In this document: one piece after another, positions 13,890-20,860 of the stretch
How the letters are laid out: each line of letters starts with the position of its first letter
Position numbering within the stretch: the first letter of the stretch is position 1
NCBI GenBank assembly: GCA_937897575.1
Contig: CALCQG010000091.1
Location: forward strand, 1 to 38,201
Reading direction: 5' to 3'
Source of the DNA: an uncultured Synergistales bacterium
GTDB lineage: Bacteria > Synergistota > Synergistia > Synergistales > Aminobacteriaceae
Length of the DNA stretch: 38,201 nucleotides
The notes under the pieces: generated by a model
Told to the model about the DNA's origin: nothing
The model's input: only the letters and a program-made list of their open reading frames with translations
Database searches by the model: none
Translations under genes and position numbers: made by a program

Positions 13890-14460
13890 GAAAAACGGAT
13901 ATGCGATCTCCGCCAATCCAGAGAAGGGATTATACATTCGACACCGCAATGAACACATCAAGGTCAGTGACTTGACCGATCTGTATCTCGGCTCCCATTC
14001 TACGGTCTACAAGATGCTTGCCCGCGGGAGACAAAGAGACTTCACGATCCACACGAGCATAAATGCACGCTTTTACACCCTTCAGTGGGGCTTTGCCGCC
14101 TTGCGAAGATAGAAAGAGGCCCTGAGAAGCGATTGAAAAAGGAGAAACGGTATAAGCAGATGCCCGACGATAGGGAGTGAGCCGAATCAGTCGCTTATGC
14201 CGAACGAAGCAAAGGCGAACAAAGACTACCTAGTCAGATGGTCCACGGTGATACGAAACGCCTTCCGCTGCTCAAGGGTCAGAAGACGACAGACCCGAGA
14301 GAGTATCTCTTTGTAGCGGTGGATGACTTCAGCAGAGAGCTCTATACAGCCAGACTCCCCGACAAGACATCCACCTCGACTCGTCACTTTCTGGAACAAA
14401 TCCTGAAAGAAGTGCCCTACACCATAGAGATGTACTATGCGAGCAACGGCTGAGAGTACA
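13890..14460 (+). pseudogene. Degenerate IS481-family transposase (frameshifts and stops)
   Basis: Fragments in several frames: KVSDL..LY..S.STVYKMLARGRQRDFTIHTSINARF..L.WG, then RLAKIE, then VHGDTKRLPLLKGQ...REYLFVAVDDFSRELY...PDKT...FL.....PYTIE...SNG* (rve integrase core). The C-terminal catalytic part is absent. Confidence 0.75.
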
Positions 14461-14835
14461 CTGGTTCTCCTTAATTTAAGAAACCACCTTGCACAAGGTA
14501 ACGGCAGATATGACTTTATGAAAGATCTGGGGAGCACTGAATCGCAAGTCCTAAATCAGCAATATAGGTTTGGTTATGTACTCCTGTTGACAAATGATCT
14601 CTCCTACTGCTTCCCTCCTAGGAATAACAACGTAGAGTATGCTGCTTTCAGCATTCACGGTGGAGCAGGAACACAGAGAACCATGGCTTAGGATCAACAG
14701 ATGGAGCAAGGTAGCATTCAAGTCAGAGTGAAGCGATCGTTTTAAGATCTAGATACACAATCAGGTGATAAGATTACAGTAATTTTGCAGAGGCAGATAG
14801 CAACGCTAAAAAGTTTCGGTATCTTTTCCTCATCG
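14455..14835 (+). pseudogene. Decayed 3' part of a conserved hypothetical (possibly PD-(D/E)XK-like) gene
   Basis: Segments LRNH.AQ..GRYDF.KD, GYVLLLTND.SY, AAFSIH.G, MA*(W?), IVLRSRYTIR**DYS and KFRYL follow in order across stops and a frameshift. I recall this pattern from a widespread uncharacterised family but cannot name the family. Confidence 0.4.
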
Positions 14836-14858
14836 CGACACGCACGCCTTCATGTCTT

Positions 14859-15062
14859 GTGGTGAGGACTGAAAAACAGGGTACCGGTCAGATAGTTTCC
14901 GGGAAGAATGAGTCTAAGAAGGTTCGAGAACTAGTACAACTGATAAAATCCTATAAAGATACAGAGAACTTGCCCCTGGAGAGAAAGCACTCCGACACTT
15001 CTGCTCATGCGATTGAGGAGATTATTAAAAATAATAATGTAATAGGTTGGTGGAAGAGATGA
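14859..15062 (+). CDS. Short ORF or gene remnant whose stop overlaps the methyltransferase start
   Basis: 67-aa ORF. Its TGA overlaps the MTase ATG (ATGA, 15059-15062). No good RBS and no recognised motif. Confidence 0.3.
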   Translation: MVRTEKQGTGQIVSGKNESKKVRELVQLIKSYKDTENLPLERKHSDTSAHAIEEIIKNNNVIGWWKR

Positions 15063-16039
15063 GCGACCTGCTTTACAAGACTGAATTCGGTAAGTATTAT
15101 ATCGGGAAGTGCGAAGAAAATTTAAAACATCTTAAGCTGAAACAAAAAGTACAGCTTATCCTTACTTCACCACCATTTCCTCTAAACAATAAAAAACGGT
15201 ATGGAAATCTTGTAGGAGAAGATTATTTAAAATGGTTCACCAGCCTCGCTCCCCTGTTTTCCAGTTTATTGACGCCAAATGGCTCTATCGTGATAGAGGT
15301 GGGTAACGCATGGGAAAGGAACAGGCCGGTGCAGTCTTTACTGCATCTGAAATCCCTAATGAATTTTGTGGAAAACAAAGATGCTGGCTTAAGATTATGT
15401 CAGGAATTTGTTTGCTACAATCCTTCACGGTTGCCTTCCCCGGCTCAATGGGTAACAGTACAAAGGATTCGGGTGACGGACAGCTTCACTCATATCTGGT
15501 GGATGTCCAATTCAGATTATCCTAAAGCGGATAACAGAAAGGCCCTCAGACCATATAGTCAAAGCATGAAAGACCTAATAAGAAACGGGAAATACAACGC
15601 AGGAAAAAGGCCGTCGGAGCATAATATTAATGAAAAGAGTTTTTTGAAAGATAATGGCGGTAGCATATCTCATAATGTCTTTGAATTGGAGATGGTTGAT
15701 GAAAAACGGGAACTCCGCCCACCTCATTCCATGTTCAGCATTGCAAACACTAGGTCAACAGATTTCTATACACGTACATGCTCGGACAGGGGTATAGTAC
15801 CTCATCCAGCTAGGATGCCTCTTGAACTGGCAAGTTTTTTCATCTCGTTTCTCACCGATGCGGGAGATATTGTGCTTGACCCATTTGCAGGAAGCAACAC
15901 CACGGGTTTTTGCGCAGAAAAACTAAAACGAAAATGGATAAGCATAGAAGTCGATGGTGATTACGGCATCCAGTCCCTCATACGTTTTGAGGAACCGATT
16001 TTAAAAGCGCAAATTAGAAAGGGAGCTGTATGTAAATGA
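15059..16039 (+). CDS. Site-specific DNA methyltransferase, beta class, M.PvuII-like (probably N4-cytosine)
   Basis: Catalytic motif IV TSPPF precedes SAM-binding motif I DPFAGSNTTG. Segments KK.YGN, NPSRLPSP..WV, KDNGGSI and HPARMP are colinear with M.PvuII as I recall it. Confidence 0.9.
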   Translation: MSDLLYKTEFGKYYIGKCEENLKHLKLKQKVQLILTSPPFPLNNKKRYGNLVGEDYLKWFTSLAPLFSSLLTPNGSIVIEVGNAWERNRPVQSLLHLKSLMNFVENKDAGLRLCQEFVCYNPSRLPSPAQWVTVQRIRVTDSFTHIWWMSNSDYPKADNRKALRPYSQSMKDLIRNGKYNAGKRPSEHNINEKSFLKDNGGSISHNVFELEMVDEKRELRPPHSMFSIANTRSTDFYTRTCSDRGIVPHPARMPLELASFFISFLTDAGDIVLDPFAGSNTTGFCAEKLKRKWISIEVDGDYGIQSLIRFEEPILKAQIRKGAVCK

Positions 16040-18038
16040 CAATATCTGATGAACTAAGAAGCATAGTTTCCATCGACATCTTTAAAAAAGGGAAGAAACC
16101 CGAGATGTTTGCTGGTCGTCCCTATTATCTCGACTATGAAAAAACATATCTGCTTGTCGCAGATGCCTGGAAAGAAAAAATAGGAGGTATTCCTCAAAGT
16201 TCATTTCTTCTAGCTTTTTATGAAAATCAACACGACAGTGTTAAAGAGGCCCTTCTTCTTAGAGCGATCAGACCCGCTAAACTTCCTACAGACAACGATG
16301 TAATAGCATCAATGGTAGAGTATTACAAAGACAATCTCAAGACCTCGGGTAAAGAAAATCAGCTTGATGATTACACAAAATACACCTTCGGTTTTTCAGG
16401 TCTAGAGTGCAAGGTCATAGGGACTTTTTATAAGGATACAAATGAAATAGTCCAATTCGGAGGTGATGTGGAAAACTTTTATAGCGCTCATAACTATGTA
16501 GTTTATAAACCAACCTCCGAAGTACTTGAACAAATTGTCAATTTCAGAGACGGCGCTGTGGTAGGTAACGGAAGCGACGTAAAAATAGGGAAGGTAAGAT
16601 ACAGTTCCAGTAGAAGATTCCAAGAAAACCAGCCTGATGTGAATGTTTACGTGAATTCTCAGGACTTTCTCGGCAAAAGGACGGCTCTTTTCGGAATGAC
16701 ACGTACTGGTAAGTCAAACACAGTAAAGAAAATAATAGAAGCGACCACTGATTCAAGTTTTCAATCTATAAAACTAGACGATGGAACAAGTGATATGATT
16801 TCTGATGCAGCTGAGAATCTGGAACAATTCAAAGAAGACGGAACTCCGAAATACAAAGTAGGGCAGATAATTTTTGACATAAATGGAGAATATGCAAATG
16901 CTAATCTTCAGGACGAAGGAACGGCTATTTTCGAAAAATACAGAATATTAACGACCCGCTATAGTGTTCTTGAAAAAAAGATTTTAAAGTTCTAAAGGTC
17001 AATTTCTATAAAGAAATAGAAACGAGCTTTGAACTTTTTACCTCACTTCTTGCAGACGAGAACGTAGACTATGTCAGGAGTTTCTTGTCTATCGACTTTT
17101 CTGAACCTGATACTGATAAGAGTCAGCAAGTTCGGTGGGATAGAAAGATAGCAGCATATCAGTGCTGTTTGCGTGCAGCGGGATTCGAAATTCCAAAAGG
17201 ATTTTCTGTTAAGTTCGTCGGTAATAAGGAAATAAACGACAAAATAATGAAAGGAAAAGAGCTTGAACCTTCAAAGGGAATTTCAATTGATGAGGCCGTA
17301 GCATGGTTCACATGGGTTGCTGAGAACTGCCAGACCGACGATTTTTTTGTTAACTATAAGAAAGAAAAAGGCAACGACTGGGTTGACGAGGACTTGAAAG
17401 CTTTGCTTGTCATGTTGACCAGAAAAAGAAACCTAAGTGGTAGCGCGAATCTTTCAGGGTTTCGCAAATTGGCACCTTTAAAAAAATATCATACAGTATC
17501 TGTGGGAAAATCTTTTGAGATTGAAATAGTAGAAGATCTTCGTAAGGGTAGCATCGTCATAATAGACTTGTCGCAGGGAGATCCTGTAATACAAAAGACA
17601 TACTCTGAGAGAATCTGTAGAAAACTCTTTAACGATGCAATGAATAAGTTTATTAGTAATTCACCCAATAACTTTATCCAGTTCTACTTCGAGGAAGCTC
17701 ACAATCTCTTTCCTAAAAAAGATGACAGGGATTTAAGCCAAATATATAACAGGATCGCGAAAGAAGGTGCGAAACTCAACCTCGGGATGGTGTACGCTAC
17801 CCAGGAGGTAAGCTCAATAAGCTCCAACATCCTGAAAAACACACAGAACTGGTTTATTGCTCACCTGAACAACGAGGATGAATTAAAGGAAGTAAAAAAA
17901 TTTTATGATTTCGGAGATTTTTGCGAAGGCCTAATTCGATTCAGTGCAAGCAGCGACAAGGGGTTTGTTCGGATGAAAGTTTATTCCAACACCTTTGCTG
18001 TGCCGGTACAAATTGACCGTTTCATGGATAACAAATAA
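16036..18038 (+). CDS. herA: HerA/DUF87 FtsK-like ATPase split by a -1 frameshift at 16974-16980 (about 667 aa if joined)
   Basis: 5' ORF (16036-16995): N-terminal HAS-barrel-like region, Walker A GMTRTGKS, IIFDINGEY. The -1 frame is open from 16974 to 18038: IVIIDLS, Walker B FYFEEAHNLF, RIAKEGAK (arginine-finger position) and YATQ. ATGA overlap with the MTase. Confidence 0.85.
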
Positions 18039-18051
18039 CAGGGGGTTAACC

Positions 18052-19395
18052 ATGGGATACGGCAATGTATACTCGAACAAGCCGTTTGAACGCGCGAGCA
18101 AAACATCTCATACTGGGATCATAAATGATGCAGCAGTTAGAGACTTTCTTTGCACCTGCACGTTTCCTCTGCTTCAGAACGAAATAAATGATCATGATAG
18201 CATTTTGGAGGAAATGCAACCAGTTTCCGAAAACCCGATCAAGACTATAATTACCATTGATGGAGGATATACAAATGTTGTTGTCGAAGAAGCATTTCCT
18301 TCCTCTACAATAGCATTCTTCCAGTTCGGTGTTTTATTCTTTAAGTACGAAGATTTATTAGAGTTGGAGCGAAAACCATTTATTGACCCGGATGACTTTG
18401 CTAAAATACAGAATATACAGAGGTTAAAACTTGTTATTCCCACGAAAGGCGTTTCCATAAAAGGTCAAAAAGATTTAATTTCTTCAGTCCGAAAGGCTCT
18501 TTACGACTTTTTTATGAGTGCTCCCGATAAAAAAGAGGACAAGACCTACATGCAGTCTTTGAAATGGTTCCTCTTTGAAGAGTACAGTTTGAATGCACCG
18601 AAGCCCTGGCATTTAGCAACCTGCCCGTATTGCAGTAAGGGCCTTGATATAGAATGCAGCAAGATAAGCCGAAGCTTCACGACACCCTGTCCTTTCTGCG
18701 GTGGTGAGATCTATCTCACCGATGTTTTTCGTCTGCATGAAGCAATAGATAATGAACTTGGGGCTGGCGGAATCTTGGGTTACATAACAACCACCGTGGA
18801 ACAGATGACCATTGTGTTTCTTATCCATCAGATACTCAATTTGCAACCCTCACTCCTAAAAAGCTGTTTGATAATAAAAGATGGACCACTTGCTTTTTTT
18901 GGGCAAACCGCAAATATGTACAAGCCGATGAGAAGTCTAGTTCGTTTTCTTCACAAAAAACATGCAATCTATTTGGTTGGTTTGGAAAAGAGCGGAGCAT
19001 TTGTGGAGCATGCGGCGCAGATATCGGAAAGGATGAAGCCAAAACAATTTCTCATGCTTGGAAACAAGCATATTTATAAGTATATTATCCCAGGAACAGT
19101 AGAGGAGCACCGTCCTTATGCGGATACATCTTACTATAGCAGCAAGCTAATTTTCAAATCTGTATTCGAAAATGTTTATGTGGCGACTATACCAAACATA
19201 TATGCCAAAGTGGAACCGACTCGGGATGACTATCTGAACCTTGATGTCATATTGCATAACATTACTGCACTTAAGTGCGATCTTTATTATAATTCTCTGG
19301 TCCCGGTCGTTATGGTGAACAAACTTGTTTCCCTTGCAGATCATCCAAGTTCTGATGTACTTCGCAGTTTTGCACAGGAGAACATACAGCACTAA
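18052..19395 (+). CDS. nurA: NurA-family nuclease (RNase H-like fold) with an inserted CxxC...CxxC zinc ribbon
   Basis: Motifs ITIDGG, IIKDGPL, VGLEKSG and C-terminal L.P....NKLVSL, plus CPYC...CPFC. Starts 13 nt after herA. Confidence 0.75.
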   Translation: MGYGNVYSNKPFERASKTSHTGIINDAAVRDFLCTCTFPLLQNEINDHDSILEEMQPVSENPIKTIITIDGGYTNVVVEEAFPSSTIAFFQFGVLFFKYEDLLELERKPFIDPDDFAKIQNIQRLKLVIPTKGVSIKGQKDLISSVRKALYDFFMSAPDKKEDKTYMQSLKWFLFEEYSLNAPKPWHLATCPYCSKGLDIECSKISRSFTTPCPFCGGEIYLTDVFRLHEAIDNELGAGGILGYITTTVEQMTIVFLIHQILNLQPSLLKSCLIIKDGPLAFFGQTANMYKPMRSLVRFLHKKHAIYLVGLEKSGAFVEHAAQISERMKPKQFLMLGNKHIYKYIIPGTVEEHRPYADTSYYSSKLIFKSVFENVYVATIPNIYAKVEPTRDDYLNLDVILHNITALKCDLYYNSLVPVVMVNKLVSLADHPSSDVLRSFAQENIQH

Positions 19396-19468
19396 AAAAT
19401 TTATAAGTGATAAAAATTATTCATCGCCCGATTTAAACACTCAAACTACATTTTAGGAAGGAAAAACC

Positions 19469-20122
19469 ATGGTCACGAAAAAGATAACGAATCTTTGGCA
19501 ATCGAAAAGCGAAAAAGAATGGGAGGAATGTCTTTCTTCTTACTGGGGTTATGTGCGCAATCAACTTCCAAAAAACTTTGAGCTCGAACGCGAAATGGAT
19601 GTACTCCACCTTGAGATGGTTAAAGCTCTTAATCCTGAAGAGTGGTACAGTTTTCTTCGCGAAAAATACTTCCGCTGGAAATACACCCAACCCAATAGAT
19701 ATGTGACTACCACAAACTCGTTGAATAGATATCTTAAAGAGGGAAAACTTGATGAACTTTTCGAGATCAAGCAAAAACTGCTTGATTTTGACACATCGGA
19801 TATAAAATGCGGTCTTTCAGCAGCAAAGAGGATTCACGGCCTTGGAATACCTGGTTCATCCGGTCTTCTCGCTCTCCTTTATCCTCATGCTTTTGGCACA
19901 GTTGATCAATTTGTGGTCAAATCGCTTCTTGAGATTCCAGATCTTCCTGAAAAAGAAGCAATAAAAAAAATGAATCCAATGAAACTTTCACTTAGGAATG
20001 GTGTACTCCTTATAGAGCTGATGCGGCGAAAAGCGGCTAAAAATAACAGGATATTCGGGGGCAACCGTTGGACTCCTCGAAAGATTGACATGATTTTATG
20101 GGTTTGTCGAACGGACTTATAG
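19469..20122 (+). CDS. Hypothetical protein resembling HhH-GPD DNA glycosylases
   Basis: HhH-like IHGLGIPGSSGLL, then GTVDQFV (GPD-type Asp position) and C-terminal PRKIDMILW. RBS-like AGGAAGG. Confidence 0.6.
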   Translation: MVTKKITNLWQSKSEKEWEECLSSYWGYVRNQLPKNFELEREMDVLHLEMVKALNPEEWYSFLREKYFRWKYTQPNRYVTTTNSLNRYLKEGKLDELFEIKQKLLDFDTSDIKCGLSAAKRIHGLGIPGSSGLLALLYPHAFGTVDQFVVKSLLEIPDLPEKEAIKKMNPMKLSLRNGVLLIELMRRKAAKNNRIFGGNRWTPRKIDMILWVCRTDL

Positions 20123-20206
20123 CTGTCGAATGCCTCTATGTGGAAGTTTTTCAGCAAAGGCAAGGTATTTCAATTGTAAGAATCTGAAGTGTTATTTACA
20201 ATTTCT

Positions 20207-20282: not shown

Positions 20283-20744
20283 TTAGAGATCGTCTCCCGA
20301 CCCCATGTAGATCAGCACGACCTCCCGCTCCTGGATATCTCCCAGAGAAAGGGGAGCGCGCAGCGAGCGAGTCCTCGCCGGGATGACCGGCCCCCCCGAT
20401 TCGTCCAGGGCGATGGCGAAGTCCTCCCTGGCATCCATGGCCTCGTCCACGCACCGCCACAGAGCGGAGGCGATGCGATCCTCCACGTCCCGCCGCCTGG
20501 CCCGGGCCCGCTCCCTCTCCAGCCGCTCTTCGGCGGCACACAGCGGCTTCAGGATGACCCCGTCGAAGACGCCCCCACATACAGTCCTATCGAAGGGGGT
20601 CTCTTTGAGAGCGGCGACGTTCGTCTTACGCTGGTCCTGTTCCGACCGCTCGAACTCGGCGAAATGGATCGCCCCATCGAAGAGCTCCGCCCCGCTGCGC
20701 TCCGCCGAGCCCTGACCTACCCGGCATCCGTTCTGATCCGACAT
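20283..20744 (-). CDS. Hypothetical protein downstream of the cobalamin riboswitch
   Basis: RBS GGAGGG lies 5 nt before the ATG at 20744, directly after the riboswitch attenuator. 153 aa, no recognised motif. Confidence 0.55.
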   Translation of the reverse strand: MSDQNGCRVGQGSAERSGAELFDGAIHFAEFERSEQDQRKTNVAALKETPFDRTVCGGVFDGVILKPLCAAEERLERERARARRRDVEDRIASALWRCVDEAMDAREDFAIALDESGGPVIPARTRSLRAPLSLGDIQEREVVLIYMGSGDDL

Positions 20745-20771
20745 GATATCCCTCCATGGCCCATTGAGATA

Positions 20772-20803
20772 GAAAAAGGAGAAGCCCATATGCGGGCTTC
20801 TCC
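20772..20803 (-). terminator. Intrinsic terminator (expression platform of the cobalamin riboswitch)
   Basis: The minus strand reads GGAGAAGCCC-GCATAT-GGGCTTCTCC-TTTTTC, between the aptamer and the start codon. Confidence 0.75.
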
Positions 20804-20860
20804 CAGGATAGGTACAGACCATCCGACAGAGTCCATTGCGCCCGCGCGCGAACTGAATCC

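Follow-up and report, generated by a model that had tools for sequence, protein, structure and literature searches.

The stretch analysed here (the window) is the 38,201-nucleotide contig CALCQG010000091.1 from the genome assembly of an uncultured Synergistales bacterium (GCA_937897575.1). Its GC content is about 61%, that of the genome 62%, with a dip to 38–50% over roughly positions 13900–20200. This island holds four co-oriented open reading frames (ORFs) on the forward strand, i.e. a DNA methyltransferase (MTase) gene, herA, nurA and a fourth gene referred to as gene 4, with GC fractions of 0.42, 0.39, 0.41 and 0.41, respectively, against 0.62 for the genome. The MTase and herA genes overlap by ATGA (16036–16039), herA and nurA are 13 nt apart (18039–18051), and nurA and gene 4 are 73 nt apart. 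An original prediction had taken these four genes for a candidate new restriction-like defence system; the arrangement that it described, with co-orientation, AT-richness, overlap and both gaps, is confirmed by the ORFs and the GC profile. The features of the island are as follows.

13940–14470, forward strand: decayed insertion sequence (IS) remnant at the island's left edge, with an rve integrase core (E 1.6e-6)
15059–16039, forward strand: MTase, 326 residues, intact, module gene 1
16036–16995, forward strand: 5' piece of herA, with a putative HAS-barrel region; PF01935 (E 6e-10)
16973–17040, forward strand: frameshift site, with an A7 run, A AAA AAG in the 0 frame and a predicted hairpin 5 nt downstream
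16980–18038, forward strand: 3' piece of herA in the -1 frame, with Walker B FYFEEAH, AKEGAK and ATQE
18052–19395, forward strand: nurA, nuclease of the NurA/TdpB fold, 447 residues, intact, module gene 3
19469–20122, forward strand: gene 4, helix-hairpin-helix (HhH) glycosylase-like, 217 residues, unnamed family

By homology, the product of gene 1 is a predicted beta-class N4-cytosine DNA methyltransferase of the M.PvuII family, as had been proposed. It is closest to M.PvuII (PDB 1boo, E 7e-68, about 40% identity), matches the PADLOC profile MTase_II (PDLC03323, E 2.6e-83) and Pfam family PF01555, and has a TSPPF motif at residues 36–40 and a DPFAGS motif near the C-terminus. Enzymes of the M.PvuII type make N4-methylcytosine (title of PDB 1boo). 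Gene 2 was assigned to the HerA/DUF87 ATPases in the Pfam scan, with a Walker A motif FGMTRTGKS at about residues 219–227. This assignment is likewise borne out, both by PF01935 and by similarity to TdpA, the motor of the TdpABC system: a profile of 35 intact HerA homologues, searched against the PDB, found TdpA at E 1.3e-26, the next match at 1.8e-13 and Sulfolobus HerA at 4.7e-10, and TdpA (8wet, E 2e-13) is also the best PDB match of the 3' piece. The motifs FGMTRTGKS and AKEGAK are present in all 35 homologues, where TdpA instead has FGKTGFGKS and AKEGRK. The arginine in the P-loop (window 16690–16720) and the alanine in place of the EGRK arginine (17755–17775) may be connected, in that one may compensate for the other.

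The product of gene 3 gave no match in Pfam, NCBIfam, PADLOC 2.0 or a PDB sequence search, and was assigned by fold rather than by profile; neither PADLOC 2.0 nor NCBIfam includes a model for it. Its AlphaFold model (predicted local distance difference test score, pLDDT, 79) has TdpB as best Foldseek match (8wfd_G, E 2.9e-6), to which it aligns with a VIA-align Z-score of 16.3 (root-mean-square deviation, rmsd, 4.5; 300 residues aligned; 12% identity), compared to 9.8 or less for other NurA structures. Its Atlas clusters include the NurA family PF09376, the hidden Markov model (HMM) of which itself gives no match. The fold is RNase H-like, and D70, E230, D277, E312, K313 and H431 are conserved. 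A CxxC...CxxC insert is found at residues 191–216, the four cysteines of which are complete in 19 of 33 aligned rows, so the zinc ribbon is dispensable. Of the zinc-ribbon NurA originally described, the NurA fold is hence supported, while a family HMM match is lacking and the ribbon is incomplete in the other 14 rows.

Genes 1–3 are one mobile three-gene module. Searching with the nuclease yielded 28 genome loci, 22 of which have MTase, herA and nurA in this order; two more are remnants from which herA has been deleted, three have herA-nurA without a methylase, and one has a nurA fragment alone. The host titles cover Bacillota, Bacteroidota, Chloroflexota, Cyanobacteriota and Melainabacteria, and the complete set of three genes is present in four out of four additional metagenome loci that are not identical. 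A relative of nurA is present in 14 of 201 sampled genomes from one cyanobacterial order, and a close one in eight; in six of these eight the close methylase lies directly upstream. The linkage anticipated by the original prediction is also conserved in the reverse direction, when four samples (of 201, 268, 330 and 201 genomes, with centre genomes excluded) are searched for the methylase: herA lies directly downstream of 11 of the 12 methylases with at least 59% identity, the exception being a truncated fragment, and all three genes are present in 10 of the 12. No herA was found within 1.5 kb of any of the nine inspected distant PvuII-like methylases (37–52% identity). The distance matrices of the three proteins correlate (r 0.74, 0.84 and 0.90; 19 loci, dereplicated at 90% HerA identity), a correlation to which host kinship adds, and the protein trees share only 5–10 of 16 splits. 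Within the host phylum the module is patchy (2 of 268 genomes), and relatives are found on five plasmids and in two near-identical Vibrio prophages.

The methylases of the module constitute their own subfamily, 59–77% identical, tied to herA-nurA and kept across phyla, with a mean column identity of 68% over 27 module-linked copies. AGCT or CAGCTG are candidate target sites, and word usage shows a weak excess of AGCT: in module genes it occurs 1.17-fold over codon shuffles, compared to 0.95-fold in neighbouring genes, and is higher in 15 of 19 loci. The signal is weak because modules without this methylase also show an excess (1.05–1.12) and the genes are homologous. In several cyanobacteria (G383, G346, G333, G441, G368, G410, G318 and G455) PvuII-like methylase domains occur in open frames of 870–900 residues, suggesting a fused form of the methylase.

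The scans of the island proteins with PADLOC, Pfam and NCBIfam identified no Type II endonuclease, C protein, Mre11 or Rad50, as had been stated at the outset. The window contains a single metallophosphoesterase gene, at a distance of 10 kb, the product of which is LpxG/YaeI-like by score. That the locus serves housekeeping double-strand-break repair, with the methylase adjacent by chance, is very improbable. Both NurA and HerA have the folds of the repair complex; in contrast, an intact module HerA homologue scores about 28–30 bits against repair cut-offs of 800–970 (NF040819, NF040937), no mre11 or rad50 is adjacent, the frameshift in herA (see below) is tolerated, and the genes lie in a low-GC island with an IS remnant and occur so sporadically in the phylum.

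PADLOC recognised no named system in the module beyond the generic MTase_II and weak HerA matches. In its neighbourhood, matches to defence families were frequent: of 102 neighbouring proteins from 30 loci, 20 (in 13 loci) match at E 1e-50 or better, the bar that was set, compared to none of 23 in the window flanks. They comprise AbiE, Septu, Type II and Type III methylases, Type IV-like enzymes, PDC-S01, PDC-M01 and one UvrD-like protein. In Bacillota, an AbiE pair lies directly upstream in nine loci (e.g. L003, 3501–5023) and a Type III Mod-Res-like pair in four (e.g. L012, 333–4921). In Sporanaerobacter (L018, 1679–4328), a gene of 488 residues and a gene for a PAPS-reductase/BrxP-like protein lie just upstream of the module, a possible case of a phosphorothioation gene beside a TdpAB-like pair.

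Taken together, we consider it somewhat better than even (a probability of roughly 55%) that genes 1–3 are a methylation-guarded, restriction-modification (R-M)-like mobile cassette. The best reading is that the module would work like TdpABC, with methylation replacing sulfur. TdpAB reportedly degrades unmodified DNA, and the mark blocks its action. By family resemblance, the methylase would mark a single short palindromic site in host DNA with N4-methylcytosine, and a hexameric HerA ring would pump double-stranded DNA into a NurA dimer (HerA6-NurA2), where both strands would be cut. By analogy with TdpABC, marked DNA may stall or escape the motor, so that unmarked phage or plasmid DNA would be destroyed and host DNA spared.

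Several observations weigh against such a guarded cassette. Since the mark would be a methyl group on a base rather than sulfur in the backbone, the sensing mode of TdpA may not carry over, and alanine replaces TdpA's EGRK arginine, which we take to be an arginine finger, in all 35 family members. Intact herA-nurA pairs without an adjacent methylase exist in one Nostocales clade (L002, L024, L048 and L049) and, separately, in G467; these pairs, which keep the scored catalytic residues apart from E230 in G467, argue against a strict toxin-antidote link. The linkage to the methylase is thus mostly consistent, as had been expected of a dedicated system, with these pairs as a partial departure from it. 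Cross-protection by a distant PvuII-like gene elsewhere, as present in the methylase-less genomes L002, L024, L026 and L027, is to be set against a background rate of 61 out of 201 sampled genomes of that order with such a gene, and against G467, the genome of which has none at E 1e-40. Scans of viral contigs retrieved no relative of nurA (nor of gene 4). The frequency of defence neighbours is suggestive rather than a formal test, as the neighbours were hand-picked and many of the loci are kin; the predicted defence-island enrichment is supported by the counts, with its weight limited by this sampling. Finally, according to PMC5365140 and PMC7767461, a knockout of the methylase in the comparable operon of the integrative and conjugative element (ICE) ICETh1 exists and affects DNA transfer only slightly.

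These methylase-less pairs bear directly on the possibility that HerA-NurA destroys any free ends of double-stranded DNA, blind to methylation, with the methylase as a long-term passenger, operon regulator or guard, which we regard as unlikely. Two independent methylase-less lineages keep intact enzymes, and in four Nostocales loci with intact nurA the methylase position is taken by a small helix-turn-helix (HTH) gene, with an XRE-type HTH preceding herA. End-dependent cutting of both strands is described for the archaeal HerA-NurA of T. kodakarensis in PMC12977600, and R-M genes of Type II, Type III or a Type IV-like kind are frequent direct neighbours. Against it, the methylase subfamily is preserved at 59–77% identity across phyla and almost never found without herA (11 of 12), and relatives of the pair have recruited three unrelated methylase classes. 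A MerR-type HTH gene was also observed in front of the methylase in three cyanobacterial modules, L072 (2465–2890), L073 and L074.

The recruited classes are found beside more distant herA-nurA pairs. In six loci (L045, L046, L063, L064, L065 and L067) the partner is an SPPY alpha-type methylase that shares with gene 1 only the motif for binding S-adenosylmethionine, located at the opposite end, and is non-orthologous. A D12-class methylase is found in two more loci, co-oriented in L062 and on the opposite strand in L047; the latter may be part of a separate system, because of its orientation and its match to PD-Lambda-5_B (E 5.5e-120). In L047 (1309–5750; Vibrio phage 10N.286.55.C4_PE001) herA-nurA and the methylase occupy the cargo slot of a prophage, between integrase and excisionase. 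These swaps allow a broader, possible if improbable view, in which the HerA-NurA lineage would be a general shredder of unmarked DNA, its motor held back by chemically different marks, i.e. beta-class N4-methylcytosine, alpha-class SPPY methylation, D12-type methylation or Tdp phosphorothioation. Methylase-less copies would then rely on the host's own methylases, and the restriction arm would read modification during translocation and need no sequence-specific endonuclease.

Alternatively, the methylase could in addition be a specificity or sensor subunit that recognises unmethylated sites and controls the loading or release of the motor, in the manner of Type I/III or BREX systems, or its inhibition by phage could unleash degradation of host DNA. 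We deem this quite unlikely. The ATGA overlap would couple translation of MTase and herA, the methylase diverges least of the three proteins (mean distance 0.37, versus 0.40 for HerA and 0.51 for NurA), and the absence of the EGRK arginine hints that a partner activates the motor. However, pairs without a methylase persist, and different methylase classes would need different interfaces.

The copy in the window is itself probably disarmed, since its herA is frameshifted. One base has been lost in the A7 run at about 16973–16979, where homologues read one base more; the 5' piece, with 53–72% identity to single-frame homologues, leaves the frame at about codon 315. Both pieces retain the conserved columns (70 of 72 and 94 of 96, respectively) and are about equally close to their relatives (64–70% and 61–70%), which indicates that the break is recent. 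An assembly error was considered and rejected, as contigs from four out of four sequencing runs, from four studies dated 2014–2025, cross the site without a gap (all four runs are flagged as possible sources, and contigs hide rare variants), and the metagenome contigs L040 and L042 carry the same allele. It is most likely that this copy survives as an orphan methylase and an idle nuclease, contrary to the idea of a system active at this locus; the original prediction merely hinted at the break by mentioning a repaired herA.

An A AAA AAG heptamer with a hairpin 5 nt downstream is the layout of a -1 frameshift signal. The hairpin has a predicted energy of -16.5 kcal/mol, within the top 2.6% of 1001 island windows. 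A programmed frameshift could nevertheless not be established: the hairpin arms lie in conserved codons and their skeleton is common to in-frame homologues, the host encodes tRNA-Lys(CUU), the frameshift is shared by none of the 29 non-identical homologues read at the A7 site, and the gene of a sister strain (L042) is cut. A trickle of full-length motor made by -1 ribosomal shifting in this genome is distinctly unlikely. The sister strain is the same as the window over the methylase and the 5' part of herA, and breaks off 10 nt past the frameshift (16990). The last 203 bases of the L042 reverse strand are AT-rich DNA that is not in the genome, with a perfect TTGACA-type promoter, and beyond the break an ORF starts (MDNPFTVVFYET...) before the contig ends.

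A broken herA with an intact methylase is found in the window and in L011 (stop at codon 76), L042 and L045 (IS200/IS605 insertion); loss of herA with the methylase kept is the usual direction of R-M decay. An apparently broken methylase in G653 was discarded, as it reflects a gap of Ns. The broken herA makes the present copy a poor test object, and intact relatives such as L009, L012 and G186 are better.

Gene 4, which had been included as a component of the system, is instead a separate cargo of the island and a bystander: it adjoins the module in none of the 28 genome loci, and its membership was rejected. Homologues occur in 3 of 268 and 1 of 201 sampled genomes; three other gene 4 genomes have no module gene in the fetched stretches, two of which end at a contig edge, and the genome G451 holds a distant module on another contig. 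The predicted fold is HhH glycosylase-like, a moderate match for a helical protein: the model (pLDDT 96) is best matched by the Ogg-type glycosylase 3n0u (rmsd 4.1; 172 residues aligned), with a Z-score of 10.1 that falls short of the bar for helical proteins, and of the 19 top fold matches 18 are enzymes of the HhH type or helical enzymes related to it. No Pfam HMM matches. Among its Atlas neighbours PF21790 is assigned to 15–18% of members, and eukaryotic zgc:112496-like proteins are also present. The family is unnamed and has 864 or more homologues, with W10, W18, Y67-F68-W70-K71, GLG (124–126), D146-Q147-F148 and W201-T202-R204-D207 invariant; there is no lysine at what is presumably the lyase position.

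The island is flanked by transport and metabolic genes in the Pfam scan, and pieces of the IS remnant recur at 73–87% identity on three other contigs of the same genome. Att-like repeats, a tRNA gene and a clear promoter were looked for in the window and none was found. An ORF of 179 residues without a Pfam match (20283–20822, reverse strand) adjoins the island, and DNA at about 20840–21000 matches many relatives in multiple copies, perhaps a conserved leader or riboswitch-like element.

If the guarded-cassette reading is right, the module represents a widespread, unnamed class of R-M systems that distinguish self from non-self by a processive ring motor plus nuclease rather than by a site-specific endonuclease, and it would account for a group of 'orphan' PvuII-like methylases. 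With three genes in E. coli, a reading of base methylation by a TdpAB-type machine, in addition to backbone sulfur, would then be testable. The module would likewise help to decide between defence and DNA donation as the role of mobile NurA-HerA-methylase operons.

Compared to known systems, the module shares its two folds with the HerA-NurA repair complexes of archaea and Deinococcus (4d2i, 7f6d, 9x1l-n), but matches these more weakly than TdpAB, has no mre11/rad50, and is mobile and patchy. With Sir2-HerA and DUF4297-HerA it has in common a HerA ATPase in a defence setting, but its effector is NurA and its HerA scores 13–45 bits against cut-offs of 800–850; in the available passages of PMC10853773 and PMC12839542 the HerA capture systems are described without mention of NurA. 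The PvuII Type II R-M system has a homologous beta-class methylase with SPPF motif, whereas the module has no adjacent cognate endonuclease or C protein.

The tdtA operon of ICETh1 in Thermus thermophilus HB27, studied for DNA donation, resembles the module in combining, by the paper's description, a NurA-like nuclease, a HerA-family ATPase and a PF01555 methylase. Its order is Tth111II/TthHB27I (a Type IIG restriction enzyme), NurA-like TTC1878, TdtA, methylase TTC1880, and, as far as described in PMC5365140 and PMC7767461, DNA donation requires NurA and TdtA, and loss of the methylase has the minor effects on transfer given above; the best TdtA homologues named in PMC5365140 include one from T. 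antranikianii. That the cassette likewise serves DNA donation or genome mobilisation is quite unlikely, in spite of this co-transcribed trio and its requirement for donation (PMC5365140). Neither a Type IIG enzyme nor an integrase or tRNA site is present in the window, and the module has no ICE features; the gene order (MTase-herA-nurA) and the sizes differ (a PvuII-type methylase of 326 residues versus 410, and 667 and 447 residues for HerA and NurA versus 568 and 377), the neighbours of the module are defence rather than transfer genes, and its hosts span many phyla.

TdpABC (An et al. 2025, PMID 39820821) is the most similar system, in which one DNA-modifying gene likewise accompanies a HerA ring ATPase and a nuclease of the NurA fold, and TdpA and TdpB (PDB 8wet, 8wfd, 8y1k) are the closest solved relatives of the module HerA and nuclease. 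In contrast to TdpABC, the modifier in the module is an N4-cytosine methylase (PF01555), no tdpC is present among the four island genes, the nucleases share only 12–14% identity, the module proteins are larger, NurA has a Cys4 insert, and HerA has EGAK instead of EGRK and an invariant arginine in its P-loop. Two reviews (PMC12914056, PMC13223576) list TdpABC among phosphorothioate R-M systems, with a single gene for the modification. Because the pair is closest to this restriction module, and much less close to the repair proteins, the suggested reuse of a repair machine is an old one that has already been described. In the main texts of freely accessible papers, the literature search turned up no report that names or tests a PvuII-type MTase-HerA-NurA system. 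Judged by what defines the Tdp, ICETh1 and PvuII systems, the module belongs to none of them, and the original prediction of a candidate new system stands in that PADLOC names no match for it; it is nevertheless less new than was claimed, as TdpAB and ICETh1 already pair a motor and a nuclease with a modifier.

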